From contig OZ024743.1 in assembly GCA_964016885.1 (NCBI GenBank), positions 221,154,001 to 221,218,000 of the forward strand: a stretch of 64,000 nt of DNA, in the 5' to 3' direction. Below the pieces are notes generated by a model, which saw only the letters and a program-made list of their open reading frames with translations, was not told the DNA's origin and ran no database searches. Within the stretch, counting starts at the first letter, position 1. Each line of letters starts with the position of its first letter. Below, one piece after another: positions 18,502-63,242 of this stretch. This stretch comes from Eledone cirrhosa. Lineage: Eukaryota. Made by a program: the position numbers and the translations under genes.

Positions 18502-18536
18502 GTTTAAAATAGAGTGGAAAAGATGGGAAAGACCAC

Positions 18537-26714: not shown

Positions 26715-26765
26715 TTTTGTCTGATGAGGACGTACTGTTGTACATCCGAAATATGTATAATAAAA
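26715..26765 (+). ncRNA. type I hammerhead ribozyme (short helix III, PLE/retrozyme type)
   Basis: UUUUGU-CUGAUGA-GGACGUAC(UGUU)GUACAUCC-GAA-AUA(UG)UAU-A-AUAAAA. Helix I is 6 bp, the core is intact, helix II is 7 bp with one mismatch, helix III is 3 bp and the cleavage triplet is AUA. Confidence 0.8.
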
Positions 26766-35547: not shown

Positions 35548-35664
<117 letters not shown>

Positions 35665-35912
35665 ATAAACGTAGTTTTGTCTTTGCTTGTAATTGTTTTT
35701 CACCGCTCCAAATAATGACGTATTATATTTGTTTTTTCCCGTTCTTTGCCAGGGAACGTTCCCACGAACCAAAGTATCGTCTTCGCGTCTTCCTCCGGTT
35801 GCAACGTTTTTTTGAAATATTCACTTCTGCGTTCACAGATTGACTTTGTTACTTTCAGAAGATCCCGTTAAGGGTGAAAGCAGCGATTCTTTGCTTAAAC
35901 TTTAATCTGTTA

Positions 35913-35967
<55 letters not shown>

Positions 35968-35976
<9 letters not shown>

Positions 35977-36954
35977 TAAACAAATAATGAACAAACAATT
36001 CCTTATATTAAACAAAAAAAGTTCACTATTTAACGATCGTTTCTAGGGCATATATGTGCTATAATTGGTATGCATATTTAACAGATCTATGTACAAAATT
36101 ATACAAAATTATACAAATTATCAAGATTAAATATACATACCTAACTCATATATACGCCGTCTTCAGAAATAATGAAGTATATTTATTGATAATAACAACA
36201 ATTCAAAATATCAGTTCAAAATTGACCAATGAAAACACAAAGGGTTAAAAAGCAGTTTGGTGTGTGTATATACATGTAAAACCCTACACACATTTTACAA
36301 TAATGTGTGTATAATATGTATGTGCATACTAAAAAGATGGATGCAAATAAAAAATTTCAAGGTTAATATCTCTGTAAGCTTAATGCGCTGATAAGATACG
36401 CAATGATACTTATGTAGTCAAGCATATAAATATATTTTTTTCATACTCACACATATCAGTATAATCACACATACATGTGCGTATATATATAAATATACAC
36501 ATAACCACGAACACACAAACACACACACACACACACACCCCCCACTCACATTTATATATGTGGATATAAAATCATAAGCAAATAGAAATTAAGTCACTCA
36601 CATAAACACACTGGTACACACATTTCAAGATCAAGATACAGAAATTAGGTGGGAGGGGGGGGGGAGGGGTCAGTATTAGGTTGTCAGACCAGACAGCCTA
36701 ATATAAATGTATCTATAAATTATGAAAAATAAAAAAATAAAAACAATAAAATATATTACATATAATATAATGTACATACACATACAGATATACATACACA
36801 TACATACATGTACGCGCACATAGAGATATCTACACATACATACATACACACATACCTATACTGTCATACACACACATACATTTACACGAACATACACATA
36901 CACATATAAAAAGATAAAAATACGGACACACACACGCGCAACACATACACACAT

Positions 36955-36991
<37 letters not shown>

Positions 36992-37112
36992 TATACATAT
37001 ATATACACACACACACATAGACTCATATATATATACATACACATACATATACTTATACATAAACATATATATCCCACACTCATACCACCATGAAAACACA
37101 TACAAACATCCA

Positions 37113-37159
<47 letters not shown>

Positions 37160-37251
37160 ATACACACACGTACACATATATGCATATATACATACATATA
37201 TACACACATACACATATATATATATACACACACACATAAAATACAGACATG

Positions 37252-37282
<31 letters not shown>

Positions 37283-37374
37283 TTCATTACCCTTATATAT
37301 ACACATAGTATATATACATACACAACCTCACTTATACACATATACACATAAGTTATATTACAATAATAATAAAG

Positions 37375-37429
<55 letters not shown>

Positions 37430-37550
37430 TATACATACATACACATACATATACATACATACATACACATACATACATACACCTAAATATAAACATATAT
37501 AAATACACACATACGAATAAAGACATATATTCACACATAGACACCTATAT

Positions 37551-37588
<38 letters not shown>

Positions 37589-37677
37589 ATATACACACAC
37601 ATACACATACATACACATATATATATATATATACACATATATACACACGCACACACATACAGACACACATACACACT

Positions 37678-37718
<41 letters not shown>

Positions 37719-39347
37719 ATGTGAGTGTGCGCAAATACATACATATATATACACACACACATACAAACACACACAAACACATACATATGCATACATGCAC
37801 ACACACACACATATATCACATAGATACGAAGATACAGACACACATACACACTCACATATATATATATATATATATATATATGTGTATGTGAGTGTGCGCA
37901 AATACATACATATATATACACACACACATACAAACACACACAAACACATACATATGCATACATGCACACACACACACATATATCACATAGATACGAAGAT
38001 AAACATATAAATAGATAGACATACAAATATATACAGAACCCATATACACATACATGCAAACACGCATATACATATATACATATATACACACATATATATT
38101 CCTATATACAAGCATACACATACACACACATATATACATATACCTACACATATATATACCACACGTTCACATACACATACATATATAATACATATATATA
38201 CATACATATACATACATATGTATGTACAATCATATATACACACTCAATCTTACATTCATATTTACATGCTCATATATGTATTTTTATATCTAGAAATAAA
38301 TACCAAAAAAAAAAAAAAACTATATAGACACCCATCTACCCATATATTCATACATATACACTTACAAAAACAGATGATAATAGTATGGGGGAAAGGGGGG
38401 GGTTTGGAGAAGGGGATCAAAGTAAATATATGTTTCAAGAAACCTATAATATTTTCCATATCTTAATTCAATGTATGTTCTTACATATTTTCAATGCTAG
38501 GAAATACGAAATCTATGCATCACAAAATAAAAAAGTATACCATTAATCATATGTCAACTAAACCAAAGATAGTCAACATATTGATTTCCAAGGTGTAAAT
38601 TAGTTAGGTTTATAATATTTGAAGCAGAATTATGAAGTCAAACAGTAGTAGATTATAAATTACATTATAACTAAATTAAAGTTAATAATAGGGAAAAGAA
38701 ACCCAAATAAAAATAAAATAAAGTATTACATCGGTAGTAGCATATAAATTATATGTTAACTAAGTTAAAAATTATATATTTATTTCAATAGTATATGTTA
38801 ATTAGTATATGTTAATTAGGTATACAATACATAAAGCAGATATTGTATTTCATCAATAGCATAATATAATTATATGCAAATAAAAATCAAAATTAATACG
38901 CATACACATACATATACATACACATACACATACATATACATATACATACACATATATATATATATATATACATATATATACACACATACATACATATATA
39001 GTCACATAAATATACATACAGATACACATACAATACACACATATACATATACATATAGATATACATATCTTTTTCAAAAAATTTGCACAGAATATATTAA
39101 CTAGGTATATATCCAAAAACACCTCCCATTCTATGATTACATGAAATTCTGCAATTCGTCTGTACAAGGATACTAATTTTAAGCAAATTAAAATTAAAAT
39201 TAAAGTTTTAGGTTGATTAAAGCTAAAACCAAATAATAAATATATTTCCAAAATGTATATTAAATAGGTCAATAATACTAAAAATTCTTTCTCCGTCATA
39301 GGATACATGATATTATTTTGTTATATTTTATCTGTAAAAGAATTATA

Positions 39348-39388
<41 letters not shown>

Positions 39389-42300
39389 TAATAAAAGGTT
39401 AAACTAAATTAAAAAATTATAATAAAAGGTTAAAATAAGTTAAAATTAATCTATAAATTAAATTACTGAATATATATTATTAGTAATATTTAAAGGTTTT
39501 TCAAAATTAATGATTACATAATATTTTCTCATCTGTAATAAAATATTAATTAAATTAAATTTATAGGTTAACTAACATTTAAATTAAATTAAATTCTAGA
39601 ATAATGTTATTAATTAGGTTTATAATATTTAAATGTTTTTTTTAGTTTATGATTACACGATATAATTAATTCCTGTCTTTTATTTAATAAGATATCCCTA
39701 GACTTCATTATTTCAAATAGTTCTTGGGAACATAATCTACATTCCTTTCTATTATTTTGATAAGGGGTGGCTCTTTTGAGCACACTCCAGGTCAAATCAT
39801 ATTTTATATTTTTATTTTTATAACTATTGATTTTTTCTGCTAGAGATGTTGTATTAGCCAGTGCGGCATTTTTAAAGCTATGTTTGTGGGTATTATACCT
39901 TGTCTTAAAATTGTTAGAGGTAGCTCCTATATATGAGCAAATAGAATCTTTAGTTTTAACATTACATTTATAGACTATGTTGTTAACAAGACAATTCCCT
40001 TTTAATGGGCAGTTTGTTTTGTTTCTACAGTTACATCCTTTCGTTAATTCCGTATTTGAGGAGATATTATTGTTAATTTGATGTACTGGTGGTATACTTA
40101 TAGTTTTCTTACATTTATATGCATTATATGCACTTATATTTTGTTTTATGTTATTTGTTGTAGAATATGAGAATTTAACTGTAGACCTATTTAAGATTTG
40201 ATGGTATTTGTGGTTTGGCGGGAAGTTTTTCTCAAGGATATAAAAAAATTTTTTAGCAATATTATCCTTAACTTGTAAATTAAAAGGAGCATTATACCAA
40301 GTAACTCGTCTATTACGGTTTCTATGTTGTTTATTATTTTTATTATTTTTATATGTTGTATCATGATTTTTACTAGGAGGAATAATGTTAATGATCTCAC
40401 CACAACTATTTTTAGTTATATTTGTAGATTTAGGTGTTTTATCTTTTTTATTAGGAGTTTTATTATTAATATTTATTATAGTCTTATGATGAGTAGTTTT
40501 TTGAGGGTTACTATACTTTATATTAGAAGATTTAGTATTTTGGGGTATACTGTGGGTGGCATTTAGGTGTGTACCTTTCATTTGGTGTTTGTTGGTAATA
40601 TTATGCTGTATGTTTTCAGTATTTTTAGTAGAAGTTATATACTCTAATCTATTTTTGTGGCCACTTCTATCTAGAGCTTCATTATAAAAGGTCGCATTTT
40701 TATCAAATACATCTTGGTTAGAAGAAAGGTTAGAAATTCTAAGTGATATATTATATGCAAGGTTTTTAAGGATAGATTTAGGGTGATTAGATTGTGAGTG
40801 TATGTAATGTAAGTTTTGGTTAGGTTTATGGTAAGGTTGGTATATACCCGTAGCTAAATCTAAAGTTATATCTAGGAAATTTACTACTTTACTTGTTTTT
40901 TCAAAAGTAATATTAAGATTATAATAGTCCTTAAGGAAAGTTCTAATATGCTTTTTGTTTTTTTCGATTTCTGAAAGGCTAAGGTTGTTAGAAAGAAGAA
41001 GACAGTCATCACGATATAAACCACCTTTGAGGTGGGGAAAAGAGGCATTTATGTTGAAAAGGAGAAAGAGGCCCACAAGATCAGTAATTTGGGCAGAATC
41101 GCTTGAACCCATAGTAATATCAAAAAGATTACTATAAGTGTTTCTGGTCCAGTATTCATTCTGAAATTCAATAAGTGTTTGTCTAGCATGTGTAATAATG
41201 TTAATGTCATCCGAAGTTAAATTAGATCTATTTTTAGCAAAAATTAATGCTTTGTTCAGGAGTATGGGTGATATAGAAGAATAATAGTTATCTATATCAA
41301 ACTGTAGGAAAGAAGCAGAAGATTTACACCTAATATTTTTAAACCAATTAATTACCTGGGAGGTGTTTTCCCAGAGTGGTAAAATAACGTATTTTCTTAT
41401 TTGTGGGATGACTCTATCTAAAATTTTTTTGCTAATTATTCCAATATCTGATTTGGAGGGACATATAAGTCTAATAGAAGGATTAGAGTTAAAGTTAGAT
41501 TTGTGATCTTTCAGGTTGAAGTGTGGACTTCTCAATGCCAAAGGTTCAGTTCTATCTTCAATATTTAGTTTTTTTACTATGTTGTGTGTTTTGTTGTTGA
41601 TGTTGGTGAGTGACGCATTATTAGATTTTTTATAACTTTTTCTGAGTTCTTTATATATGAACTCATTATAATGTTCAATATCCATATGATACAAGTTACC
41701 AGTTTTGTCCGAGTGGACATGGATTTTTTTAGACTTTTTTAGGTCCAATAGGGTAGAATCAAGGTCCTTTTGAAAGACGGATTTATACTTTTTAAATTTG
41801 AGATGTTTAATTAAATTAAAAAGGTCTTTCTCGAAGTCTTCAAGTAAAAAGTTGTGTGGTGGATTCTTGTAAGTGTTGAAATCATACATATATTTCCGAT
41901 CTGCTTGTTTAGATTTTCTATCAAAGTGGTAGGCTCTCCATCTAACCCTTCTGATAAAATTATTAGTTTTCTGAATCATAAGGAGTAAGAAGTCGTCCTT
42001 AGAAGGTATTGGTATGTTTTTTAAGGAGGTTCCTAAATATTGTTTTTCCATTGTGATATGGATGATGGACAATTGAAAGAGCTCAACTAAATGTATATGG
42101 GTTTACAAAATCATACATATATATATGTATATACATAAATATAAAATTAATACACACATACAGTACAAAAATACGAATATTTCCGTGAAAATAGGAGCAA
42201 AATTATGTAGATAAATCTACCAAGAGTTTACGGTAGTGTCCAATCCGTATGAAGAACTCAATGTATTCCGGATATCATGGAAAGAAGAGATGTAATGAAA

Positions 42301-43328
42301 ATCAAATTTCGGTGAAAGATAAACGGTATACAGAGTCAAGATAAAATATTAAACAAATAATGAACAAACAATTCCTTATATTAAACAAAAAAAGTTCACT
42401 ATTTAACGATCGTTTCTAGGGCATATATGTGCTATAATTGGTATGCATATTTAACAGATCTATGTACAAAATTATACAAAATTATACAAATTATCAAGAT
42501 TAAATATACATACCTAACTCATATATACGCCGTCTTCAGAAATAATGAAGTATATTTATTGATAATAACAACAATTCAAAATATCAGTTCAAAATTGACC
42601 AATGAAAACACAAAGGGTTAAAAAGCAGTTTGGTGTGTGTATATACATGTAAAACCCTACACACATTTTACAATAATGTGTGTATAATATGTATGTGCAT
42701 ACTAAAAAGATGGATGCAAATAAAAAATTTCAAGGTTAATATCTCTGTAAGCTTAATGCGCTGATAAGATACGCAATGATACTTATGTAGTCAAGCATAT
42801 AAATATATTTTTTTCATACTCACACATATCAGTATAATCACACATACATGTGCGTATATATATAAATATACACATAACCACGAACACACAAACACACACA
42901 CACACACACACCCCCCACTCACATTTATATATGTGGATATAAAATCATAAGCAAATAGAAATTAAGTCACTCACATAAACACACTGGTACACACATTTCA
43001 AGATCAAGATACAGAAATTAGGTGGGAGGGGGGGGGGAGGGGTCAGTATTAGGTTGTCAGACCAGACAGCCTAATATAAATGTATCTATAAATTATGAAA
43101 AATAAAAAAATAAAAACAATAAAATATATTACATATAATATAATGTACATACGCATACAGATATACATACACATACATACATGTACGCGCACATAGAGAT
43201 ATCTACACATACATACATACACACATACCTATACTGTCATACACACACATACATTTACACGAACATACACATACACATATAAAAAGATAAAAATACGGAC
43301 ACACACACGCGCAACACATACACACATA

Positions 43329-43362
<34 letters not shown>

Positions 43363-43483
43363 TATACATATATATACACACACACACATAGACTCATATA
43401 TATATACATACACATACATATACTTATACATAAACATATATATCCCACACTCATACCACCATGAAAACACATACAAACATCCA

Positions 43484-43530
<47 letters not shown>

Positions 43531-43622
43531 ATACACACACGTACACATATATGCATATATACATACATATATACACACATACACATATATATATATACAC
43601 ACACACATAAAATACAGACATG

Positions 43623-43653
<31 letters not shown>

Positions 43654-43745
43654 TTCATTACCCTTATATATACACATAGTATATATACATACACAACCTC
43701 ACTTATACACATATACACATAAGTTATATTACAATAATAATAAAG

Positions 43746-43800
<55 letters not shown>

Positions 43801-43921
43801 TATACATACATACACATACATATACATACATACATACACATACATACATACACCTAAATATAAACATATATAAATACACACATACGAATAAAGACATATA
43901 TTCACACATAGACACCTATAT

Positions 43922-43959
<38 letters not shown>

Positions 43960-44048
43960 ATATACACACACATACACATACATACACATATATATATATA
44001 TATACACATATATACACACGCACACACATACAGACACACATACACACT

Positions 44049-44085
<37 letters not shown>

Positions 44086-45663
44086 ATGTGAGTGTGCGCA
44101 AATACATACATATATATACACACACACATACAAACACACACAAACACATACATATGCATACATGCACACACACACACATATATCACATAGATACGAAGAT
44201 ACAGACACACATACACACTCACATATATATATATATATATATATATATGTGTATGTGAGTGTGCGCAAATACATACATATATATACACACACACATACAA
44301 ACACACACAAACACATACATATGCATACATGCACACACACACACATATATCACATAGATACGAAGATAAACATATAAATAGATAGACATACAAATATATA
44401 CAGAACCCATATACACATACATGCAAACACGCATATACATATATACATATATACACACATATATATTCCTATATACAAGCATACACATACACACACATAT
44501 ATACATATACCTACACATATATATACCACACGTTCACATACACATACATATATAATACATATATATACACATACATATACATACATATGTATGTACAATC
44601 ATATATACACACTCAATCTTACATTCATATTTACATGCTCATATATGTATTTTTATATCTAGAAATAAATACCAAAAAAAAAAAAAACTATATAGACACC
44701 CATCTACCCATATATTCATACATATACACTTACAAAAACAGATGATAATAGTATGGGGGAAAGGGGGGGGTTTGGAGAAGGGGATCAAAGTAAATATATG
44801 TTTCAAGAAACCTATAATATTTTCCATATCTTAATTCAATGTATGTTCTTACATATTTTCAATGCTAGGAAATACGAAATCTATGCATCACAAAATAAAA
44901 AAGTATACCATTAATCATATGTCAACTAAACCAAAGATAGTCAACATATTGATTTCCAAGGTGTAAATTAGTTAGGTTTATAATATTTGAAGCAGAATTA
45001 TGAAGTCAAACAGTAGTAGATTATAAATTACATTATAACTAAATTAAAGTTAATAATAGGGAAAAGAAACCCAAATAAAAATAAAATAAAGTATTACATC
45101 GGTAGTAGCATATAAATTATATGTTAACTAAGTTAAAAATTATATATTTATTTCAATAGTATATGTTAATTAGTATATGTTAATTAGGTATACAATACAT
45201 AAAGCAGATATTGTATTTCATCAATAGCATAATATAATTATATGCAAATAAAAATCAAAATTAATACGCATACACATACATATACATACACATACACATA
45301 CATATACATATACATACACATATATATATATATATATATACATATATATACACACATACATACATATATAGTCACATAAATATACATACAGATACACATA
45401 CAATACACACATATACATATACATATAGATATACATATCTTTTTCAAAAAATTTGCACAGAATATATTAACTAGGTATATATCCAAAAACACCTCCCATT
45501 CTATGATTACATGAAATTCTGCAATTCGTCTGTACAAGGATACTAATTTTAAGCAAATTAAAATTAAAATTAAAGTTTTAGGTTGATTAAAGCTAAAACC
45601 AAATAATAAATATATTTCCAAAATGTATATTAAATAGGTCAATAATACTAAAAATTCTTTCTC
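35968..45663 (-). mobile_element. inverted arm of the Naiad-type PLE concatemer (~1.5 units)
   Basis: Reverse complement of the plus-strand units, with an internal period of 6373 bp (36054 versus 42427). Abuts (TA)n on the left. Confidence 0.93.
39610..42051 (-). CDS. Naiad-type PLE RT + GIY-YIG polyprotein, copy 1 (813 aa from ATG)
   Basis: Motifs SLKNIPIPS, FIRRVRWRA, SDKT, LKDHK, RLICPSKSDIG, FDIDNYYSSI, TMGS, LYRDD, NFLD, WYNAPF, CNCR..CPLKGNC, NIVYKC..SYIGAT, CRLC and LNKRQEL. Confidence 0.95.
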   Translation of the reverse strand: MEKQYLGTSLKNIPIPSKDDFLLLMIQKTNNFIRRVRWRAYHFDRKSKQADRKYMYDFNTYKNPPHNFLLEDFEKDLFNLIKHLKFKKYKSVFQKDLDSTLLDLKKSKKIHVHSDKTGNLYHMDIEHYNEFIYKELRKSYKKSNNASLTNINNKTHNIVKKLNIEDRTEPLALRSPHFNLKDHKSNFNSNPSIRLICPSKSDIGIISKKILDRVIPQIRKYVILPLWENTSQVINWFKNIRCKSSASFLQFDIDNYYSSISPILLNKALIFAKNRSNLTSDDINIITHARQTLIEFQNEYWTRNTYSNLFDITMGSSDSAQITDLVGLFLLFNINASFPHLKGGLYRDDCLLLSNNLSLSEIEKNKKHIRTFLKDYYNLNITFEKTSKVVNFLDITLDLATGIYQPYHKPNQNLHYIHSQSNHPKSILKNLAYNISLRISNLSSNQDVFDKNATFYNEALDRSGHKNRLEYITSTKNTENIQHNITNKHQMKGTHLNATHSIPQNTKSSNIKYSNPQKTTHHKTIININNKTPNKKDKTPKSTNITKNSCGEIINIIPPSKNHDTTYKNNKNNKQHRNRNRRVTWYNAPFNLQVKDNIAKKFFYILEKNFPPNHKYHQILNRSTVKFSYSTTNNIKQNISAYNAYKCKKTISIPPVHQINNNISSNTELTKGCNCRNKTNCPLKGNCLVNNIVYKCNVKTKDSICSYIGATSNNFKTRYNTHKHSFKNAALANTTSLAEKINSYKNKNIKYDLTWSVLKRATPYQNNRKECRLCSQELFEIMKSRDILLNKRQELIISCNHKLKKTFKYYKPN

Positions 45664-46493
45664 GTGGTTATGTGTATATTTATATATATACGCACATGTA
45701 TGTGTGATTATACTGATATGTGTGAGTATGAAAAAAATATATTTATATGCTTGACTACATAAGTATCATTGCGTATCTTATCAGCGCATTAAGCTTACAG
45801 AGATATTAACCTTGAAATTTTTTATTTGCATCCATCTTTTTAGTATGCACATACATATTATACACACATTATTGTAAAATGTGTGTAGGGTTTTACATGT
45901 ATATACACACACCAAACTGCTTTTTAACCCTTTGTGTTTTCATTGGTCAATTTTGAACTGATATTTTGAATTGTTGTTATTATCAATAAATATACTTCAT
46001 TATTTCTGAAGACGGCGTATATATGAGTTAGGTATGTATATTTAATCTTGATAATTTGTATAATTTTGTATAATTTTGTACATAGATCTGTTAAATATGC
46101 ATACCAATTATAGCACATATATGCCCTAGAAACGATCGTTAAATAGTGAACTTTTTTTGTTTAATATAAGGAATTGTTTGTTCATTATTTGTTTAATATT
46201 TTATCTTGACTCTGTATACCGTTTATCTTTCACCGAAATTTGATTTTCATTACATCTCTTCTTTCCATGATATCCGGAATACATTGAGTTCTTCATACGG
46301 ATTGGACACTACCGTAAACTCTTGGTAGATTTATCTACATAATTTTGCTCCTATTTTCACGGAAATATTCGTATTTTTGTACTGTATGTGTGTATTAATT
46401 TTATATTTATGTATATACATATATATATGTATGATTTTGTAAACCCATATACATTTAGTTGAGCTCTTTCAATTGTCCATCATCCATATCACA

Positions 46494-48935
46494 ATGGAAA
46501 AACAATATTTAGGAACCTCCTTAAAAAACATACCAATACCTTCTAAGGACGACTTCTTACTCCTTATGATTCAGAAAACTAATAATTTTATCAGAAGGGT
46601 TAGATGGAGAGCCTACCACTTTGATAGAAAATCTAAACAAGCAGATCGGAAATATATGTATGATTTCAACACTTACAAGAATCCACCACACAACTTTTTA
46701 CTTGAAGACTTCGAGAAAGACCTTTTTAATTTAATTAAACATCTCAAATTTAAAAAGTATAAATCCGTCTTTCAAAAGGACCTTGATTCTACCCTATTGG
46801 ACCTAAAAAAGTCTAAAAAAATCCATGTCCACTCGGACAAAACTGGTAACTTGTATCATATGGATATTGAACATTATAATGAGTTCATATATAAAGAACT
46901 CAGAAAAAGTTATAAAAAATCTAATAATGCGTCACTCACCAACATCAACAACAAAACACACAACATAGTAAAAAAACTAAATATTGAAGATAGAACTGAA
47001 CCTTTGGCATTGAGAAGTCCACACTTCAACCTGAAAGATCACAAATCTAACTTTAACTCTAATCCTTCTATTAGACTTATATGTCCCTCCAAATCAGATA
47101 TTGGAATAATTAGCAAAAAAATTTTAGATAGAGTCATCCCACAAATAAGAAAATACGTTATTTTACCACTCTGGGAAAACACCTCCCAGGTAATTAATTG
47201 GTTTAAAAATATTAGGTGTAAATCTTCTGCTTCTTTCCTACAGTTTGATATAGATAACTATTATTCTTCTATATCACCCATACTCCTGAACAAAGCATTA
47301 ATTTTTGCTAAAAATAGATCTAATTTAACTTCGGATGACATTAACATTATTACACATGCTAGACAAACACTTATTGAATTTCAGAATGAATACTGGACCA
47401 GAAACACTTATAGTAATCTTTTTGATATTACTATGGGTTCAAGCGATTCTGCCCAAATTACTGATCTTGTGGGCCTCTTTCTCCTTTTCAACATAAATGC
47501 CTCTTTTCCCCACCTCAAAGGTGGTTTATATCGTGATGACTGTCTTCTTCTTTCTAACAACCTTAGCCTTTCAGAAATCGAAAAAAACAAAAAGCATATT
47601 AGAACTTTCCTTAAGGACTATTATAATCTTAATATTACTTTTGAAAAAACAAGTAAAGTAGTAAATTTCCTAGATATAACTTTAGATTTAGCTACGGGTA
47701 TATACCAACCTTACCATAAACCTAACCAAAACTTACATTACATACACTCACAATCTAATCACCCTAAATCTATCCTTAAAAACCTTGCATATAATATATC
47801 ACTTAGAATTTCTAACCTTTCTTCTAACCAAGATGTATTTGATAAAAATGCGACCTTTTATAATGAAGCTCTAGATAGAAGTGGCCACAAAAATAGATTA
47901 GAGTATATAACTTCTACTAAAAATACTGAAAACATACAGCATAATATTACCAACAAACACCAAATGAAAGGTACACACCTAAATGCCACCCACAGTATAC
48001 CCCAAAATACTAAATCTTCTAATATAAAGTATAGTAACCCTCAAAAAACTACTCATCATAAGACTATAATAAATATTAATAATAAAACTCCTAATAAAAA
48101 AGATAAAACACCTAAATCTACAAATATAACTAAAAATAGTTGTGGTGAGATCATTAACATTATTCCTCCTAGTAAAAATCATGATACAACATATAAAAAT
48201 AATAAAAATAATAAACAACATAGAAACCGTAATAGACGAGTTACTTGGTATAATGCTCCTTTTAATTTACAAGTTAAGGATAATATTGCTAAAAAATTTT
48301 TTTATATCCTTGAGAAAAACTTCCCGCCAAACCACAAATACCATCAAATCTTAAATAGGTCTACAGTTAAATTCTCATATTCTACAACAAATAACATAAA
48401 ACAAAATATAAGTGCATATAATGCATATAAATGTAAGAAAACTATAAGTATACCACCAGTACATCAAATTAACAATAATATCTCCTCAAATACGGAATTA
48501 ACGAAAGGATGTAACTGTAGAAACAAAACAAACTGCCCATTAAAAGGGAATTGTCTTGTTAACAACATAGTCTATAAATGTAATGTTAAAACTAAAGATT
48601 CTATTTGCTCATATATAGGAGCTACCTCTAACAATTTTAAGACAAGGTATAATACCCACAAACATAGCTTTAAAAATGCCGCACTGGCTAATACAACATC
48701 TCTAGCAGAAAAAATCAATAGTTATAAAAATAAAAATATAAAATATGATTTGACCTGGAGTGTGCTCAAAAGAGCCACCCCTTATCAAAATAATAGAAAG
48801 GAATGTAGATTATGTTCCCAAGAACTATTTGAAATAATGAAGTCTAGGGATATCTTATTAAATAAAAGACAGGAATTAATTATATCGTGTAATCATAAAC
48901 TAAAAAAAACATTTAAATATTATAAACCTAATTAA
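46494..48935 (+). CDS. Naiad-type PLE RT + GIY-YIG polyprotein, copy 2
   Basis: Protein identical to copy 1 in the ORF track. First ATG at 46494. Confidence 0.95.
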   Translation: MEKQYLGTSLKNIPIPSKDDFLLLMIQKTNNFIRRVRWRAYHFDRKSKQADRKYMYDFNTYKNPPHNFLLEDFEKDLFNLIKHLKFKKYKSVFQKDLDSTLLDLKKSKKIHVHSDKTGNLYHMDIEHYNEFIYKELRKSYKKSNNASLTNINNKTHNIVKKLNIEDRTEPLALRSPHFNLKDHKSNFNSNPSIRLICPSKSDIGIISKKILDRVIPQIRKYVILPLWENTSQVINWFKNIRCKSSASFLQFDIDNYYSSISPILLNKALIFAKNRSNLTSDDINIITHARQTLIEFQNEYWTRNTYSNLFDITMGSSDSAQITDLVGLFLLFNINASFPHLKGGLYRDDCLLLSNNLSLSEIEKNKKHIRTFLKDYYNLNITFEKTSKVVNFLDITLDLATGIYQPYHKPNQNLHYIHSQSNHPKSILKNLAYNISLRISNLSSNQDVFDKNATFYNEALDRSGHKNRLEYITSTKNTENIQHNITNKHQMKGTHLNATHSIPQNTKSSNIKYSNPQKTTHHKTIININNKTPNKKDKTPKSTNITKNSCGEIINIIPPSKNHDTTYKNNKNNKQHRNRNRRVTWYNAPFNLQVKDNIAKKFFYILEKNFPPNHKYHQILNRSTVKFSYSTTNNIKQNISAYNAYKCKKTISIPPVHQINNNISSNTELTKGCNCRNKTNCPLKGNCLVNNIVYKCNVKTKDSICSYIGATSNNFKTRYNTHKHSFKNAALANTTSLAEKINSYKNKNIKYDLTWSVLKRATPYQNNRKECRLCSQELFEIMKSRDILLNKRQELIISCNHKLKKTFKYYKPN

Positions 48936-50214
48936 TAACATTATTCTAGAATTTAATTTAATTTAAATGTTAGTTAACCTATAAATTTAATTTAATTAAT
49001 ATTTTATTACAGATGAGAAAATATTATGTAATCATTAATTTTGAAAAACCTTTAAATATTACTAATAATATATATTCAGTAATTTAATTTATAGATTAAT
49101 TTTAACTTATTTTAACCTTTTATTATAATTTTTTAATTTAGTTTAACCTTTTATTATAAAATTTTTTTTTTTTTTTTTTTTTTTTTATTATAATTCTTTT
49201 ACAGATAAAATATAACAAAATAATATCATGTATCCTATGACGGAGAAAGAATTTTTAGTATTATTGACCTATTTAATATACATTTTGGAAATATATTTAT
49301 TATTTGGTTTTAGCTTTAATCAACCTAAAACTTTAATTTTAATTTTAATTTGCTTAAAATTAGTATCCTTGTACAGACGAATTGCAGAATTTCATGTAAT
49401 CATAGAATGGGAGGTGTTTTTGGATATATACCTAGTTAATATATTCTGTGCAAATTTTTTGAAAAAGATATGTATATCTATATGTATATGTATATGTGTG
49501 TATTGTATGTGTATCTGTATGTATATTTATGTGACTATATATGTATGTATGTGTGTATATATATGTATATATATATATATATATGTGTATGTATATGTAT
49601 ATGTATGTGTATGTGTATGTATATGTATGTGTATGCGTATTAATTTTGATTTTTATTTGCATATAATTATATTATGCTATTGATGAAATACAATATCTGC
49701 TTTATGTATTGTATACCTAATTAACATATACTAATTAACATATACTATTGAAATAAATATATAATTTTTAACTTAGTTAACATATAATTTATATGCTACT
49801 ACCGATGTAATACTTTATTTTATTTTTATTTGGGTTTCTTTTCCCTATTATTAACTTTAATTTAGTTATAATGTAATTTATAATCTACTACTGTTTGACT
49901 TCATAATTCTGCTTCAAATATTATAAACCTAACTAATTTACACCTTGGAAATCAATATGTTGACTATCTTTGGTTTAGTTGACATATGATTAATGGTATA
50001 CTTTTTTATTTTGTGATGCATAGATTTCGTATTTCCTAGCATTGAAAATATGTAAGAACATACATTGAATTAAGATATGGAAAATATTATAGGTTTCTTG
50101 AAACATATATTTACTTTGATCCCCTTCTCCAAACCCCCCCCTTTCCCCCATACTATTATCATCTGTTTTTGTAAGTGTATATGTATGAATATATGGGTAG
50201 ATGGGTGTCTATAT

Positions 50215-50247
<33 letters not shown>

Positions 50248-50832
50248 GTATTTATTTCTAGATATAAAAATACATATATGAGCATGTAAATATGAATGTA
50301 AGATTGAGTGTGTATATATGATTGTACATACATATGTATGTATATGTATGTATATATATGTATTATATATGTATGTGTATGTGAACGTGTGGTATATATA
50401 TGTGTAGGTATATGTATATATGTGTGTGTATGTGTATGCTTGTATATAGGAATATATATGTGTGTATATATGTATATATGTATATGCGTGTTTGCATGTA
50501 TGTGTATATGGGTTCTGTATATATTTGTATGTCTATCTATTTATATGTTTATCTTCGTATCTATGTGATATATGTGTGTGTGTGTGCATGTATGCATATG
50601 TATGTGTTTGTGTGTGTTTGTATGTGTGTGTGTATATATATGTATGTATTTGCGCACACTCACATACACATATATATATATATATATATATATATGTGAG
50701 TGTGTATGTGTGTCTGTATCTTCGTATCTATGTGATATATGTGTGTGTGTGTGCATGTATGCATATGTATGTGTTTGTGTGTGTTTGTATGTGTGTGTGT
50801 ATATATATGTATGTATTTGCGCACACTCACAT

Positions 50833-50869
<37 letters not shown>

Positions 50870-50958
50870 AGTGTGTATGTGTGTCTGTATGTGTGTGCGT
50901 GTGTATATATGTGTATATATATATATATATGTGTATGTATGTGTATGTGTGTGTATAT

Positions 50959-50996
<38 letters not shown>

Positions 50997-51117
50997 ATAT
51001 AGGTGTCTATGTGTGAATATATGTCTTTATTCGTATGTGTGTATTTATATATGTTTATATTTAGGTGTATGTATGTATGTGTATGTATGTATGTATATGT
51101 ATGTGTATGTATGTATA

Positions 51118-51172
<55 letters not shown>

Positions 51173-51264
51173 CTTTATTATTATTGTAATATAACTTATG
51201 TGTATATGTGTATAAGTGAGGTTGTGTATGTATATATACTATGTGTATATATAAGGGTAATGAA

Positions 51265-51295
<31 letters not shown>

Positions 51296-51387
51296 CATGT
51301 CTGTATTTTATGTGTGTGTGTATATATATATATGTGTATGTGTGTATATATGTATGTATATATGCATATATGTGTACGTGTGTGTAT

Positions 51388-51434
<47 letters not shown>

Positions 51435-51555
51435 TGGATGTTTGTATGTGTTTTCATGGTGGTATGAGTGTGGGATATATATGTTTATGTATAAGTATAT
51501 GTATGTGTATGTATATATATATGAGTCTATGTGTGTGTGTGTATATATATGTATA

Positions 51556-51589
<34 letters not shown>

Positions 51590-52868
51590 TATGTGTGTAT
51601 GTGTTGCGCGTGTGTGTGTCCGTATTTTTATCTTTTTATATGTGTATGTGTATGTTCGTGTAAATGTATGTGTGTGTATGACAGTATAGGTATGTGTGTA
51701 TGTATGTATGTGTAGATATCTCTATGTGCGCGTACATGTATGTATGTGTATGTATATCTGTATGCGTATGTACATTATATTATATGTAATATATTTTATT
51801 GTTTTTATTTTTTTATTTTTCATAATTTATAGATACATTTATATTAGGCTGTCTGGTCTGACAACCTAATACTGACCCCTCCCCCCCCCCCCTCCCACCT
51901 AATTTCTGTATCTTGATCTTGAAATGTGTGTACCAGTGTGTTTATGTGAGTGACTTAATTTCTATTTGCTTATGATTTTATATCCACATATATAAATGTG
52001 AGTGGGGGGTGTGTGTGTGTGTGTGTGTTTGTGTGTTCGTGGTTATGTGTATATTTATATATATACGCACATGTATGTGTGATTATACTGATATGTGTGA
52101 GTATGAAAAAAATATATTTATATGCTTGACTACATAAGTATCATTGCGTATCTTATCAGCGCATTAAGCTTACAGAGATATTAACCTTGAAATTTTTTAT
52201 TTGCATCCATCTTTTTAGTATGCACATACATATTATACACACATTATTGTAAAATGTGTGTAGGGTTTTACATGTATATACACACACCAAACTGCTTTTT
52301 AACCCTTTGTGTTTTCATTGGTCAATTTTGAACTGATATTTTGAATTGTTGTTATTATCAATAAATATACTTCATTATTTCTGAAGACGGCGTATATATG
52401 AGTTAGGTATGTATATTTAATCTTGATAATTTGTATAATTTTGTATAATTTTGTACATAGATCTGTTAAATATGCATACCAATTATAGCACATATATGCC
52501 CTAGAAACGATCGTTAAATAGTGAACTTTTTTTGTTTAATATAAGGAATTGTTTGTTCATTATTTGTTTAATATTTTATCTTGACTCTGTATACCGTTTA
52601 TCTTTCACCGAAATTGGATTTTCATTACATCTCTTCTTTCCATGATATCCGGAATACATTGAGTTCTTCATACGGATTGGACACTACCGTAAACTCTTGG
52701 TAGATTTATCTACATAATTTTGCTCCTATTTTCACGGAAATATTCGTATTTTTGTACTGTATGTGTGTATTAATTTTATATTTATGTATATACATATATA
52801 TATGTATGATTTTGTAAACCCATATACATTTAGTTGAGCTCTTTCAATTGTCCATCATCCATATCACA

Positions 52869-55310
52869 ATGGAAAAACAATATTTAGGAACCTCCTTAAA
52901 AAACATACCAATACCTTCTAAGGACGACTTCTTACTCCTTATGATTCAGAAAACTAATAATTTTATCAGAAGGGTTAGATGGAGAGCCTACCACTTTGAT
53001 AGAAAATCTAAACAAGCAGATCGGAAATATATGTATGATTTCAACACTTACAAGAATCCACCACACAACTTTTTACTTGAAGACTTCGAGAAAGACCTTT
53101 TTAATTTAATTAAACATCTCAAATTTAAAAAGTATAAATCCGTCTTTCAAAAGGACCTTGATTCTACCCTATTGGACCTAAAAAAGTCTAAAAAAATCCA
53201 TGTCCACTCGGACAAAACTGGTAACTTGTATCATATGGATATTGAACATTATAATGAGTTCATATATAAAGAACTCAGAAAAAGTTATAAAAAATCTAAT
53301 AATGCGTCACTCACCAACATCAACAACAAAACACACAACATAGTAAAAAAACTAAATATTGAAGATAGAACTGAACCTTTGGCATTGAGAAGTCCACACT
53401 TCAACCTGAAAGATCACAAATCTAACTTTAACTCTAATCCTTCTATTAGACTTATATGTCCCTCCAAATCAGATATTGGAATAATTAGCAAAAAAATTTT
53501 AGATAGAGTCATCCCACAAATAAGAAAATACGTTATTTTACCACTCTGGGAAAACACCTCCCAGGTAATTAATTGGTTTAAAAATATTAGGTGTAAATCT
53601 TCTGCTTCTTTCCTACAGTTTGATATAGATAACTATTATTCTTCTATATCACCCATACTCCTGAACAAAGCATTAATTTTTGCTAAAAATAGATCTAATT
53701 TAACTTCGGATGACATTAACATTATTACACATGCTAGACAAACACTTATTGAATTTCAGAATGAATACTGGACCAGAAACACTTATAGTAATCTTTTTGA
53801 TATTACTATGGGTTCAAGCGATTCTGCCCAAATTACTGATCTTGTGGGCCTCTTTCTCCTTTTCAACATAAATGCCTCTTTTCCCCACCTCAAAGGTGGT
53901 TTATATCGTGATGACTGTCTTCTTCTTTCTAACAACCTTAGCCTTTCAGAAATCGAAAAAAACAAAAAGCATATTAGAACTTTCCTTAAGGACTATTATA
54001 ATCTTAATATTACTTTTGAAAAAACAAGTAAAGTAGTAAATTTCCTAGATATAACTTTAGATTTAGCTACGGGTATATACCAACCTTACCATAAACCTAA
54101 CCAAAACTTACATTACATACACTCACAATCTAATCACCCTAAATCTATCCTTAAAAACCTTGCATATAATATATCACTTAGAATTTCTAACCTTTCTTCT
54201 AACCAAGATGTATTTGATAAAAATGCGACCTTTTATAATGAAGCTCTAGATAGAAGTGGCCACAAAAATAGATTAGAGTATATAACTTCTACTAAAAATA
54301 CTGAAAACATACAGCATAATATTACCAACAAACACCAAATGAAAGGTACACACCTAAATGCCACCCACAGTATACCCCAAAATACTAAATCTTCTAATAT
54401 AAAGTATAGTAACCCTCAAAAAACTACTCATCATAAGACTATAATAAATATTAATAATAAAACTCCTAATAAAAAAGATAAAACACCTAAATCTACAAAT
54501 ATAACTAAAAATAGTTGTGGTGAGATCATTAACATTATTCCTCCTAGTAAAAATCATGATACAACATATAAAAATAATAAAAATAATAAACAACATAGAA
54601 ACCGTAATAGACGAGTTACTTGGTATAATGCTCCTTTTAATTTACAAGTTAAGGATAATATTGCTAAAAAATTTTTTTATATCCTTGAGAAAAACTTCCC
54701 GCCAAACCACAAATACCATCAAATCTTAAATAGGTCTACAGTTAAATTCTCATATTCTACAACAAATAACATAAAACAAAATATAAGTGCATATAATGCA
54801 TATAAATGTAAGAAAACTATAAGTATACCACCAGTACATCAAATTAACAATAATATCTCCTCAAATACGGAATTAACGAAAGGATGTAACTGTAGAAACA
54901 AAACAAACTGCCCATTAAAAGGGAATTGTCTTGTTAACAACATAGTCTATAAATGTAATGTTAAAACTAAAGATTCTATTTGCTCATATATAGGAGCTAC
55001 CTCTAACAATTTTAAGACAAGGTATAATACCCACAAACATAGCTTTAAAAATGCCGCACTGGCTAATACAACATCTCTAGCAGAAAAAATCAATAGTTAT
55101 AAAAATAAAAATATAAAATATGATTTGACCTGGAGTGTGCTCAAAAGAGCCACCCCTTATCAAAATAATAGAAAGGAATGTAGATTATGTTCCCAAGAAC
55201 TATTTGAAATAATGAAGTCTAGGGATATCTTATTAAATAAAAGACAGGAATTAATTATATCGTGTAATCATAAACTAAAAAAAACATTTAAATATTATAA
55301 ACCTAATTAA
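52869..55310 (+). CDS. Naiad-type PLE RT + GIY-YIG polyprotein, copy 3
   Basis: Protein identical to copies 1 and 2 in the ORF track. Confidence 0.95.
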   Translation: MEKQYLGTSLKNIPIPSKDDFLLLMIQKTNNFIRRVRWRAYHFDRKSKQADRKYMYDFNTYKNPPHNFLLEDFEKDLFNLIKHLKFKKYKSVFQKDLDSTLLDLKKSKKIHVHSDKTGNLYHMDIEHYNEFIYKELRKSYKKSNNASLTNINNKTHNIVKKLNIEDRTEPLALRSPHFNLKDHKSNFNSNPSIRLICPSKSDIGIISKKILDRVIPQIRKYVILPLWENTSQVINWFKNIRCKSSASFLQFDIDNYYSSISPILLNKALIFAKNRSNLTSDDINIITHARQTLIEFQNEYWTRNTYSNLFDITMGSSDSAQITDLVGLFLLFNINASFPHLKGGLYRDDCLLLSNNLSLSEIEKNKKHIRTFLKDYYNLNITFEKTSKVVNFLDITLDLATGIYQPYHKPNQNLHYIHSQSNHPKSILKNLAYNISLRISNLSSNQDVFDKNATFYNEALDRSGHKNRLEYITSTKNTENIQHNITNKHQMKGTHLNATHSIPQNTKSSNIKYSNPQKTTHHKTIININNKTPNKKDKTPKSTNITKNSCGEIINIIPPSKNHDTTYKNNKNNKQHRNRNRRVTWYNAPFNLQVKDNIAKKFFYILEKNFPPNHKYHQILNRSTVKFSYSTTNNIKQNISAYNAYKCKKTISIPPVHQINNNISSNTELTKGCNCRNKTNCPLKGNCLVNNIVYKCNVKTKDSICSYIGATSNNFKTRYNTHKHSFKNAALANTTSLAEKINSYKNKNIKYDLTWSVLKRATPYQNNRKECRLCSQELFEIMKSRDILLNKRQELIISCNHKLKKTFKYYKPN

Positions 55311-57188
55311 TAACATTATTCTAGAATTTAATTTAATTTAAATGTTAGTTAACCTATAAATTTAATTTAATTAATATTTTATTACAGATGAGAAAATATT
55401 ATGTAATCATTAATTTTGAAAAACCTTTAAATATTACTAATAATATATATTCAGTAATTTAATTTATAGATTAATTTTAACTTATTTTAACCTTTTATTA
55501 TAATTTTTTAATTTAGTTTAACCTTTTATTATAAAATTTTTTTTTTTTTTTTTTTTTTATTATAATTCTTTTACAGATAAAATATAACAAAATAATATCA
55601 TGTATCCTATGACGGAGAAAGAATTTTTAGTATTATTGACCTATTTAATATACATTTTGGAAATATATTTATTATTTGGTTTTAGCTTTAATCAACCTAA
55701 AACTTTAATTTTAATTTTAATTTGCTTAAAATTAGTATCCTTGTACAGACGAATTGCAGAATTTCATGTAATCATAGAATGGGAGGTGTTTTTGGATATA
55801 TACCTAGTTAATATATTCTGTGCAAATTTTTTGAAAAAGATATGTATATCTATATGTATATGTATATGTGTGTATTGTATGTGTATCTGTATGTATATTT
55901 ATGTGACTATATATGTATGTATGTGTGTATATATATGTATATATATATATATATATGTGTATGTATATGTATATGTATGTGTATGTGTATGTATATGTAT
56001 GTGTATGCGTATTAATTTTGATTTTTATTTGCATATAATTATATTATGCTATTGATGAAATACAATATCTGCTTTATGTATTGTATACCTAATTAACATA
56101 TACTAATTAACATATACTATTGAAATAAATATATAATTTTTAACTTAGTTAACATATAATTTATATGCTACTACCGATGTAATACTTTATTTTATTTTTA
56201 TTTGGGTTTCTTTTCCCTATTATTAACTTTAATTTAGTTATAATGTAATTTATAATCTACTACTGTTTGACTTCATAATTCTGCTTCAAATATTATAAAC
56301 CTAACTAATTTACACCTTGGAAATCAATATGTTGACTATCTTTGGTTTAGTTGACATATGATTAATGGTATACTTTTTTATTTTGTGATGCATAGATTTC
56401 GTATTTCCTAGCATTGAAAATATGTAAGAACATACATTGAATTAAGATATGGAAAATATTATAGGTTTCTTGAAACATATATTTACTTTGATCCCCTTCT
56501 CCAAACCCCCCCCTTTCCCCCATACTATTATCATCTGTTTTTGTAAGTGTATATGTATGAATATATGGGTAGATGGGTGTCTATATAGTTTTTTTTTTTT
56601 TTGGTATTTATTTCTAGATATAAAAATACATATATGAGCATGTAAATATGAATGTAAGATTGAGTGTGTATATATGATTGTACATACATATGTATGTATA
56701 TGTATGTATATATATGTATTATATATGTATGTGTATGTGAACGTGTGGTATATATATGTGTAGGTATATGTATATATGTGTGTGTATGTGTATGCTTGTA
56801 TATAGGAATATATATGTGTGTATATATGTATATATGTATATGCGTGTTTGCATGTATGTGTATATGGGTTCTGTATATATTTGTATGTCTATCTATTTAT
56901 ATGTTTATCTTCGTATCTATGTGATATATGTGTGTGTGTGTGCATGTATGCATATGTATGTGTTTGTGTGTGTTTGTATGTGTGTGTGTATATATATGTA
57001 TGTATTTGCGCACACTCACATACACATATATATATATATATATATATATATGTGAGTGTGTATGTGTGTCTGTATCTTCGTATCTATGTGATATATGTGT
57101 GTGTGTGTGCATGTATGCATATGTATGTGTTTGTGTGTGTTTGTATGTGTGTGTGTATATATATGTATGTATTTGCGCACACTCACAT

Positions 57189-57225
<37 letters not shown>

Positions 57226-57314
57226 AGTGTGTATGTGTGTCTGTATGTGTGTGCGTGTGTATATATGTGTATATATATATATATATGTGTATGTATGTGT
57301 ATGTGTGTGTATAT

Positions 57315-57352
<38 letters not shown>

Positions 57353-57473
57353 ATATAGGTGTCTATGTGTGAATATATGTCTTTATTCGTATGTGTGTAT
57401 TTATATATGTTTATATTTAGGTGTATGTATGTATGTGTATGTATGTATGTATATGTATGTGTATGTATGTATA

Positions 57474-57528
<55 letters not shown>

Positions 57529-57620
57529 CTTTATTATTATTGTAATATAACTTATGTGTATATGTGTATAAGTGAGGTTGTGTATGTATATATACTATGT
57601 GTATATATAAGGGTAATGAA

Positions 57621-57651
<31 letters not shown>

Positions 57652-57743
57652 CATGTCTGTATTTTATGTGTGTGTGTATATATATATATGTGTATGTGTG
57701 TATATATGTATGTATATATGCATATATGTGTACGTGTGTGTAT

Positions 57744-57790
<47 letters not shown>

Positions 57791-57911
57791 TGGATGTTTG
57801 TATGTGTTTTCATGGTGGTATGAGTGTGGGATATATATGTTTATGTATAAGTATATGTATGTGTATGTATATATATATGAGTCTATGTGTGTGTGTGTAT
57901 ATATATGTATA

Positions 57912-57945
<34 letters not shown>

Positions 57946-59065
57946 TATGTGTGTATGTGTTGCGCGTGTGTGTGTCCGTATTTTTATCTTTTTATATGTG
58001 TATGTGTATGTTCGTGTAAATGTATGTGTGTGTATGACAGTATAGGTATGTGTGTATGTATGTATGTGTAGATATCTCTATGTGCGCGTACATGTATGTA
58101 TGTGTATGTATATCTGTATGCGTATGTACATTATATTATATGTAATATATTTTATTGTTTTTATTTTTTTATTTTTCATAATTTATAGATACATTTATAT
58201 TAGGCTGTCTGGTCTGACAACCTAATACTGACCCCTCCCCCCCCCCCTCCCACCTAATTTCTGTATCTTGATCTTGAAATGTGTGTACCAGTGTGTTTAT
58301 GTGAGTGACTTAATTTCTATTTGCTTATGATTTTATATCCACATATATAAATGTGAGTGGGGGGTGTGTGTGTGTGTGTGTGTTTGTGTGTTCGTGGTTA
58401 TGTGTATATTTATATATATACGCACATGTATGTGTGATTATACTGATATGTGTGAGTATGAAAAAAATATATTTATATGCTTGACTACATAAGTATCATT
58501 GCGTATCTTATCAGCGCATTAAGCTTACAGAGATATTAACCTTGAAATTTTTTATTTGCATCCATCTTTTTAGTATGCACATACATATTATACACACATT
58601 ATTGTAAAATGTGTGTAGGGTTTTACATGTATATACACACACCAAACTGCTTTTTAACCCTTTGTGTTTTCATTGGTCAATTTTGAACTGATATTTTGAA
58701 TTGTTGTTATTATCAATAAATATACTTCATTATTTCTGAAGACGGCGTATATATGAGTTAGGTATGTATATTTAATCTTGATAATTTGTATAATTTTGTA
58801 TAATTTTGTACATAGATCTGTTAAATATGCATACCAATTATAGCACATATATGCCCTAGAAACGATCGTTAAATAGTGAACTTTTTTTGTTTAATATAAG
58901 GAATTGTTTGTTCATTATTTGTTTAATATTTTATCTTGACTCTGTATACCGTTTATCTTTCACCGAAATTGGATTTTCATTACATCTCTTCTTTCCATGA
59001 TATCCGGAATACATTGAGTTCTTCATACGGATTGGACACTACCGTAAACTCTTGGTAGATTTATC

Positions 59066-59109
<44 letters not shown>

Positions 59110-59324
59110 TATGTCATTTATTTTGTCTGACCTGTTTAGCTTGACTTGTTTTTTGGCTTAGGTGGTTTATGGCTTCTTGACCGCCTTCTCAGTTTGTATG
59201 GCCTTTATAACCTATGTTTATTGCTCTGGTCTTTTTTAGCCCATGGAGCGCTTGCCAGCATGACTCGGAATTTGCGCTTCGTTTGGCTTTTTCTACCCGC
59301 TGAAATGCGATTCTCGCTGAATTT

Positions 59325-63061: not shown

Positions 63062-63242
63062 ACACCAACACAACACCAACACTACTAGTGTTACTACTAC
63101 TACTGCTACTACTTTGTTCAGAGGAAATACTGGGAGTTGATACTTCAAAAGCGTTTTGATTGTACTTTTACTGTTGTGTAGTTCGTATTATGCAGTGCTC
63201 TATTTGTCGTTTACGAGTCGCCTTTATTGTCCATGTATCTCT

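Follow-up and report, generated by a model that had tools for sequence, protein, structure and literature searches.

The origin of the tandem and inverted structures of Penelope-like elements (PLEs), and the role of hammerhead ribozymes in them, have been called unresolved (PMC8557442, PMC11167929; here and throughout, cited papers are represented by excerpts). Several described systems lie close to the case reported here. The Poseidon element PAc of Anolis (Frangieh 2024, PMC11167929) has two internal start sites for reverse transcriptase (RT), which lie inside its open reading frame (ORF) and give an optional tail of 30-40 nt; both strands of an AT-rich target are cut and extended, a dimer is predicted, and a ribozyme lies in the pseudo-long terminal repeat (pseudo-LTR). 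For PLE tandems, Cervera and de la Pena proposed in 2014 (PMC4209133) a route through circular RNA, with palindromic-loop type I hammerheads in tandem units, cleavage, circularisation and more-than-unit reverse transcription; the circle model used below is thus an already published idea. Animal non-LTR retrozymes share this ribozyme arrangement, and circles have been shown for their non-coding units of 170-400 nt (PMC7229834), whereas for autonomous PLEs circles have been proposed only (PMC4209133); a 2026 preprint (10.64898/2026.07.22.740005) ties small animal retrozymes to PLEs. Here we describe a PLE insertion of 23,103 nt in Eledone cirrhosa (assembly GCA_964016885.1; 3.0 Gb, 1,796 contigs), made of about 3.6 near-identical copies of a 6.37 kb unit placed head to head. 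It occupies positions 35968-59070 of a 64,000-nt stretch of contig OZ024743.1 (C4 below; contig positions 221,154,001 to 221,218,000, forward strand); this stretch is the window, position 1 being its first letter, and unit coordinates (U) are set by U1 = 45664.

In L1 twin priming, two cDNAs are made from opposite strands and their 5'-truncated ends are joined by microhomology, but the second primer sits at variable internal sites and the arms barely overlap. At the present locus, both sites are fixed, and the arms overlap fully and exceed one unit. Unlike PAc, which belongs to another clade, the element has a 136 nt tail and start sites upstream of its ORF, one per arm; unlike the retrozymes, it has a 6.4 kb coding unit and a second, inverted arm. 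We give an even chance to a reading in which both target strands would prime cDNA synthesis, at two fixed internal sites of a circle produced through the ribozyme. A wider proposal is more tentative, and we think it likelier to be wrong than right: double rolling-circle reverse transcription by an autonomous coding retrotransposon, in which two RT subunits, setting off at sites separated by 136 nt, would follow one another round a 6.4 kb circular RNA made by the ribozyme and produce two multi-unit arms of up to ~25 kb, the number of ribozymes (one or two) setting whether a 0.5 kb non-coding or a multi-kb coding insertion results.

Geometry and template lineage of the 23 kb insertion

The 3' ends of both arms point outward into (TA)n, and their 5'-truncated ends meet in the middle at a junction that occurs once in the assembly. 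A preliminary description of this DNA had given minus and plus arms of a ~6.37 kb unit between TA tracts, meeting at 45663/45664 over 2 nt (TC) from different start points; self-BLAST and unit alignment bear this out, the starts being U3580 and U1. They likewise agree with its statement that no foreign DNA separates the tandem units, the joins between units being seamless, and with its ~6.9 kb inverted repeat (35968-42883 versus 45662-52579, 99.5% identity). The three 813 aa ORFs, which it had called protein-identical, are identical in DNA as well. Differences between units consist of two substitutions together with homopolymer and microsatellite length changes of the slippage type: U578 is T in the full minus unit (M1) and the first plus unit (P1), not in P2 or P3, with one further genome match on C7, and U6102 is T in M1 only.

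Since the insertion lies within (TA)n, a target-site duplication is unreadable. Both flanks (35663-35917 and 59107-59323) are high-copy short repeats bounded by TA, with 2,182 and 3,360 candidates at ~96% identity, and their paralogues are hence uninformative on the pre-insertion state. The left flank repeat itself holds a hammerhead-like motif, with CAGAAGA replacing CTGAAGA in six of the six copies viewed.

Both arms derive from one template lineage. The junction of a 167 bp tandem duplication has four genome matches and the silent variant U1640T has three, all of them inside this insertion and marking every unit on both arms; the three U1640T matches lie in its three ORFs. The same holds more widely: in all 12 multi-unit insertions compared, full units differ by 0-6 substitutions per 2.44 kb ORF, against 4-24 to the nearest other insertion, and each insertion has at least one allele that the other 11 lack (pieces of neighbouring insertions, nine in number, having been removed beforehand), present on both arms at nine of nine two-arm loci. 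Given that a variant born in one unit is now in all units, a monomer-to-multimer step is needed. The insertion is very young and was probably made in one event. The preliminary description had seen here the tandem-plus-inverted architecture of PLEs at multi-unit scale and of very recent origin, and these results support it.

Fixed ends, arm starts and ribozymes across the family

The ends U541 and U677 recur throughout the genome, exact end-plus-TA patterns matching 1,942 times for U541 and 3,815 times for U677. The first 104 Mb of C1 contain 45 U541 ends, and for 33 of them a divergent U677 end lies at most 40 kb away; 17 of these pairs span less than 800 nt and 16 span 4-14.5 kb, one of the 33 (C1:30.69 Mb) being false and removed before the permutation test given below. 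Tabulation of arm end points in other copies, which the preliminary description had proposed, gives the same result for 49 of 49 two-arm insertions whose two ends were both visible: one end is 541 and the other 677 (sets of 20, 13, 8 and 8, not selected on 541/677 pairing; ends aligned to U765-794 are overruns into (TA)n and were taken as U677, some being verified by exact pattern or piece length). In restriction-site-associated DNA (RAD) reads from other animals, (TA)n follows U678 in 441 and 347 reads; these runs carry mostly older-subfamily alleles and are probably not from the assembled animal. The 136 nt between the two ends, U542-677, are the PLE tail, which elsewhere measures 30-40 nt (PMC11167929), and have no unusual fold (z -0.31). 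The 541/677 rule matches the two internal RT starts and the two-strand cleavage and extension of PAc (PMC11167929).

Arm starts separate short insertions from long ones. The 17 short insertions have 34 arms, of which 24 begin at U333-347, which is the 5' edge of the ribozyme and lies beyond its predicted cut at U477. Among 40 arms that pass one full unit, the stretch U332-347 holds no stop; 10 of these arms begin within U348-678, and the other 30 extend further. None of 32 insertions couples a U333-347 arm to a long one, where 9.7 would be expected (0 of 200,000 permutations as low, arm classes being assigned by hand), so that the RNAs copied into the two arms are of one class. We infer that the RNA begins near U336; one of two raw-read RAD runs also has a joint between opposite strands at U335/336 (three starts).

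Palindromic, non-coding insertions of ~545 bp (U541-336 / U336-678) are abundant (L032, L034-L036, L038, L039, L041-L043, L187-L189, L193, L194, L196, L197, L201). Each has its own junction, and they hence arose independently; to a repeat finder they would resemble miniature inverted-repeat transposable elements.

The hammerhead at U333-487 was spotted by eye and then folded. It has a 10 bp stem I, a CUGAAGA core (at 46006), a long stem II, GAAA, and a stem III of 2 bp with palindromic CGAUCG, a palindromic loop 3 being typical of hammerheads whose cleavage depends on a second copy (PMC4209133). The fold has a z of -4.45, with 0 of 200 shuffles equally stable. The core is retained in 48 distinct variants, down to ~75% identity, in a scan that itself selects on the core; across 12 chosen subfamily variants, 97% of the cells in stems I-III are paired. 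The exact ribozyme pattern has 384 genome matches, many among the first 100 lying in divergent pairs, and the predicted cut lies 64 and 200 nt ahead of the two element ends. Rfam returned no hammerhead in the best 150 of 250 matches, nearly all of which were microsatellite-driven microRNA models. A run-off pile-up at the cut site U478, sought among arm starts, appears only as a loose cluster at U466-510, which is not decisive for cutting because a pause at the hairpin explains it equally. Elsewhere in the window, two more compact hammerhead-like motifs (26721-26759 and 30937-30967, plus strand) are probably the ends of other PLE families.

Arms longer than one unit are not confined to this locus. 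A read-through pattern diagnostic of them has 303 matches, and among the first 100 there are 10 loci with arms of at least two units; the rarity implied by the preliminary description was overstated. We took 11 other multi-unit loci, of which four are longer than the 23 kb insertion (sizes for six are 38.8, 28.5, 24.0, 23.2, 21.8 and 20.6 kb). Eight of the 11 have the two-arm layout, and three have one arm in the stretch examined. The present insertion is in the upper tail of sizes and is not unique; we estimate a few dozen such multi-unit insertions in the genome. The 38.8 kb case (C2:36290961-36329726) has two arms of 3+3 units and adjoins an older two-arm insertion of another subfamily. At C3:186882300-186912299, one inversion junction is seen twice across an N gap, likely an assembly duplication. 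A literature search, which took in papers outside subscription and so not the older Penelope reviews behind it, gave no paper describing PLE insertions that have two multi-unit arms and fixed asymmetric ends, and none using allele evidence for a monomer bottleneck; the excerpts of PMC9977147, PMC6431247 and PMC12910113 hold nothing on multi-unit PLE arms.

Competing accounts of how the arms were made

In the mechanism that we favour, a presumably dimeric RT-nuclease would nick both target strands in the (TA)n tract, and two cDNAs would be primed at U541 and U677 on one RNA lineage. The template would probably be a unit-length circle cut by the element's paired hammerheads, supposing that these cut as a dimer and that the ends are ligated. 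Each RT would run more than one turn round the circle to give a multi-unit arm, and the two 5'-truncated cDNA ends would be joined via the 2 nt microhomology, presumably by end joining. A short RNA with one ribozyme would stay uncut, both arms running off at U336 to give the ~545 bp insertions; a unit-plus RNA with two ribozymes would be cut at U477 as a dimer and circularise, which would remove the barrier and allow long arms. In favour of this mechanism are the 541/677 rule, the single-unit bottleneck seen in the private alleles, the lack of stops at U332-347 in arms beyond one unit, the agreement of arm classes within insertions, and the conserved hammerhead with its palindromic loop 3.

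Several observations weigh against this mechanism. One insertion is 541/541 (C1:30.69 Mb), and in a sample of 20 unpaired U677 ends, 10 belong to single-armed insertions, with no inverted arm. Some arms reach U332-342 and resume at U490, U516, U426 and U504 (L033, L088, L163 and L200, respectively); these resumptions are traces of template jumping or re-priming, out of register, and because they are visible, jumping is real. Some derived alleles occur in part of the units of an insertion, as U578T does here in M1 and P1, and six further loci show such sharing; units thus do not form a perfect star, and a single monomer circle cannot yield such a pattern without a switch or later conversion. 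Covariation in the hammerhead is thin, one pair being altered on both sides among related sequences. PLE ribozymes cleave poorly in vitro (PMC4209133), and PAc needed no ribozyme cleavage in vitro, with no RNA-seq reads ending at the cut site (PMC11167929).

The preliminary description had offered rolling-circle copying or repeated jumps, and these are still the leading explanations; it mentioned neither the hammerhead in each unit nor the fixed asymmetric 541/677 ends, nor that the circle model was already published. In the second explanation, with two-strand priming kept, a linear RNA would carry U336-677 at both ends, and the RT, on reaching its 5' end, would jump in register to the 3' repeat, either on that RNA or on a sibling, much like retroviral strand transfer. 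Ribozyme activity would then be unnecessary, as for PAc in vitro (PMC11167929), and the allele blocks within arms fit switching between sibling RNAs. Jumps do leave the U332-342 end at the four loci named above, but they are out of register, and failed jumps at U336 after a full unit, which would be expected, are seen in 0 of 40 arms; we regard this account as unlikely, though a serious contender. A further account is twin priming on a single long linear RNA, read through from a multi-unit source, with the 677 primer starting on the last unit and the 541 primer on the unit upstream of it; this would also predict no stop at U336. It could explain why the same offset appears at two loci (U578T here and U2211A at C2:36.29 Mb), where unit -1 of the 541 arm shares a derived allele with unit -2 of the 677 arm. 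Two offset cases, however, would be expected about one time in nine by chance. Read-through moreover requires RNAs of more than 22 kb and offers arrays no way to grow, yet in each lineage all units carry private alleles of their own, and no source carrying the private markers is present in the assembly; we regard read-through as unlikely, slightly more so than jumps. If a shorter two-arm insertion had instead been lengthened later, by unequal crossover or gene conversion between units, the shared allele blocks and the presence of U578T in units paired in the inverted repeat would be explained. Such growth must have hit both arms independently, before more than two substitutions arose, and must account for the 3+3 units at C2:36.29 Mb; starting arms of more than a unit are still required, and we consider it very unlikely.

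We take the 23 kb two-armed insertion to be a real feature, an assembly duplication or a chimeric fold-back read being highly improbable. Among the records listed from four sequencing runs none spans the junction, which is uninformative for a private insertion, and the same family does show a gap-linked duplicated junction (C3:186.88 Mb). Here, however, the window is free of N, the units differ at microsatellites, the layout is repeated at eight other multi-unit loci, and the arms end at different fixed sites and have different starts, unlike in a fold-back chimera. For head-to-head PLE junctions, Arkhipova et al. favoured self-priming (PMC3846280), in which a single cDNA would fold back and prime its own inverted arm. 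Near-palindromic junctions in short insertions, and a 541 arm shorter than the 677 arm at this locus, are what it would give; nevertheless, at C3:330.78 (17.3 versus 5.8 kb), C1:326.78, C1:62.58 and C1:89.59 Mb the 541 arm exceeds the 677 arm in length, and U578T is present in M1 although P2, from which fold-back would have copied it, has G, which leaves the account scarcely credible. Of the second priming or fold-back suggested in the preliminary description, second priming is supported and simple fold-back agrees poorly with the data.

Clade, neighbouring elements and significance

Judged from its sequence motifs, with named references compared by eye, the element is a Hydra-clade PLE, and an unusually long one. 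This clade (Craig 2021, PMC8557442) is described as having a single ORF with a C-terminal GIY-YIG, RW[K/R], DKG changed to DKT, CxCx5C, CxxC/CxH, a canonical hammerhead near the 3' end (often CTGAAGA...GTT), no fingers insertion, no CCHH, a preference for (TA)n and a length generally <3 kb; one member has a 5'-truncated inverted copy. Our element resembles it in the single ORF, with RT motifs first and GIY-YIG (IVYK...SYIG) in the last ~130 aa, in RWR (RVRWRA) and DKT (SDKTG), where homologues have RWK/RWR and DKT, in a CxCx5C linker (CNCRNKTNC), in CxxC (CRLC...E) and CxH (N...CNH) flanking the catalytic E and N, and in its hammerhead and (TA)n target. These motifs are kept in the homologue alignment, for which 21 of 117 homologues were taken. 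The ~115 aa ahead of DKT hold no cysteine; the fingers have no insert between motifs A and B relative to the 21 homologues, with spacing like that of published Hydra rows by eye; and two Cys 8 aa apart in the GIY-YIG core are not kept among the 21. N-terminal and RT motifs agree, by eye, with those of Hydra-1_Obim; as the ribozymes differ, the family is another than Hydra-1_oBim. A Pfam search of the 813 aa ORF gave no family at E 0.1.

The element differs from the clade in its 6.37 kb unit (6.0-7.2 kb in the family), length being a typical trait and not a diagnostic one, in a ~3.1 kb microsatellite-rich 3' region, a ~110 nt stem II and the 136 nt tail, in insertions of up to 38.8 kb, and in a ~100 aa low-complexity insert between RT and linker (~aa 480-580). 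This insert, rich in N, T and K, is missing in most homologues and is reminiscent of the N-rich inserts in rotifer Penelope (PMC3846280). The label "Naiad-type" in the preliminary description fails on nuclease position and ribozyme. Naiads, as defined in PMC8557442, have an N-terminal nuclease, CxC, DKA and an insertion in the fingers domain, and are without a canonical hammerhead; our element has a C-terminal nuclease, DKT, no CxC ahead of the RT and a hammerhead in every unit, which refutes membership. Naiads do share the (TA)n preference, partial tandems, an inverted 5'-truncated copy and a tail (PMC8557442). Coordinates are collected in the table.

Table. Features of the 23 kb insertion in window coordinates (TRF, Tandem Repeats Finder).
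Feature	Positions	Strand	Basis or detail
Left (TA)n target tract	35918..35970	.	TRF, 26.5 copies, 100%
Minus arm, 1.52 units, 9,696 nt (541 + 6,373 + 2,782)	35968..45663	-	U3580 at junction to 3' end U541; self-BLAST, unit alignment
Minus-arm terminal piece, U1-541	35968..36508	-	Unit alignment
Type I hammerhead motif, predicted cut after 36032	36022..36176	-	Motif scan; same sequence as folded copy
Full unit M1, 6,373 nt	36509..42881	-	Unit alignment
ORF, 813 aa, RT and C-terminal GIY-YIG, Hydra-clade motifs	39610..42051	-	ORF list, homologue alignment
Type I hammerhead motif, predicted cut after 42405	42395..42549	-	Motif scan
5'-truncated unit M0, U3580-6375	42882..45663	-	Unit alignment
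Head-to-head (5'-5') junction, 2 nt TC microhomology	45662..45664 (joint 45663/45664)	.	Self-BLAST
Plus arm, 2.10 units, 13,407 nt (6,375 + 6,355 + 677)	45664..59070	+	Starts U1, element 3' end U677
Type I hammerhead, predicted cut GUU after 46140 (U477)	45996..46150 (U333-487)	+	Fold, motif scan
ORF, 813 aa, silent private single-nucleotide variant at 47303 (U1640)	46494..48935	+	ORF list, genome search
Private 167 bp tandem duplication	50550..50954; also 37689-38001, 43964-44368, 56906-57310	+ (first copy)	TRF
Full unit P2, 6,355 nt	52039..58393	+	Unit alignment
Type I hammerhead motif	52371..52525	+	Motif scan
ORF, 813 aa	52869..55310	+	ORF list
Plus-arm terminal piece, U1-677	58394..59070	+	Unit alignment
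Type I hammerhead motif	58726..58880	+	Motif scan
Tail, 136 nt, U542-677, at one end only	58935..59070	+	Self-BLAST; same family-wide
Right (TA)n target tract	59069..59106	.	TRF, 19 copies, 100%

The rest of the window holds other elements. A decayed PLE at 4250-9150 has ~700 bp inverted ends (92%) and a frameshifted ORF with GLKF, DKG, a CxxxxCxxC linker as well as a GIY-YIG at the C terminus; by the motifs in PMC8557442 it looks Neptune-like, and it belongs to another family than the 23 kb insertion. The preliminary description had taken it (4254-9183) for the normal-sized case of the same architecture, but this decayed element is another one, of the canonical kind with a C-terminal nuclease. 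At 15082-20633 on the minus strand lies a non-LTR element with two ORFs, apparently intact (a 698 aa ORF1, and 1,139 aa with apurinic/apyrimidinic endonuclease, RT and zf-RVT), and a frameshifted RT element with zf-RVT at 11335-14725 on the plus strand. TRF also found a 59 bp minisatellite of 8.7 copies (28802-29315) and a 42 bp minisatellite of 18 copies that continues past the window edge (63242-64000).

As the 23 kb copy is one of an estimated few dozen, the value of the case lies in the family pattern. The family is young, its ORFs are intact, and a single assembly holds thousands of its ends. It allows predictions exact to the base, with RT starting at U541 and U677, the RNA beginning near U336, and cutting and ligation at U477/478, by which circle, jump and read-through are separable. 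In one event, a PLE can add 20-39 kb that includes multi-kb inverted repeats, which bears on genome size, stability and assembly.

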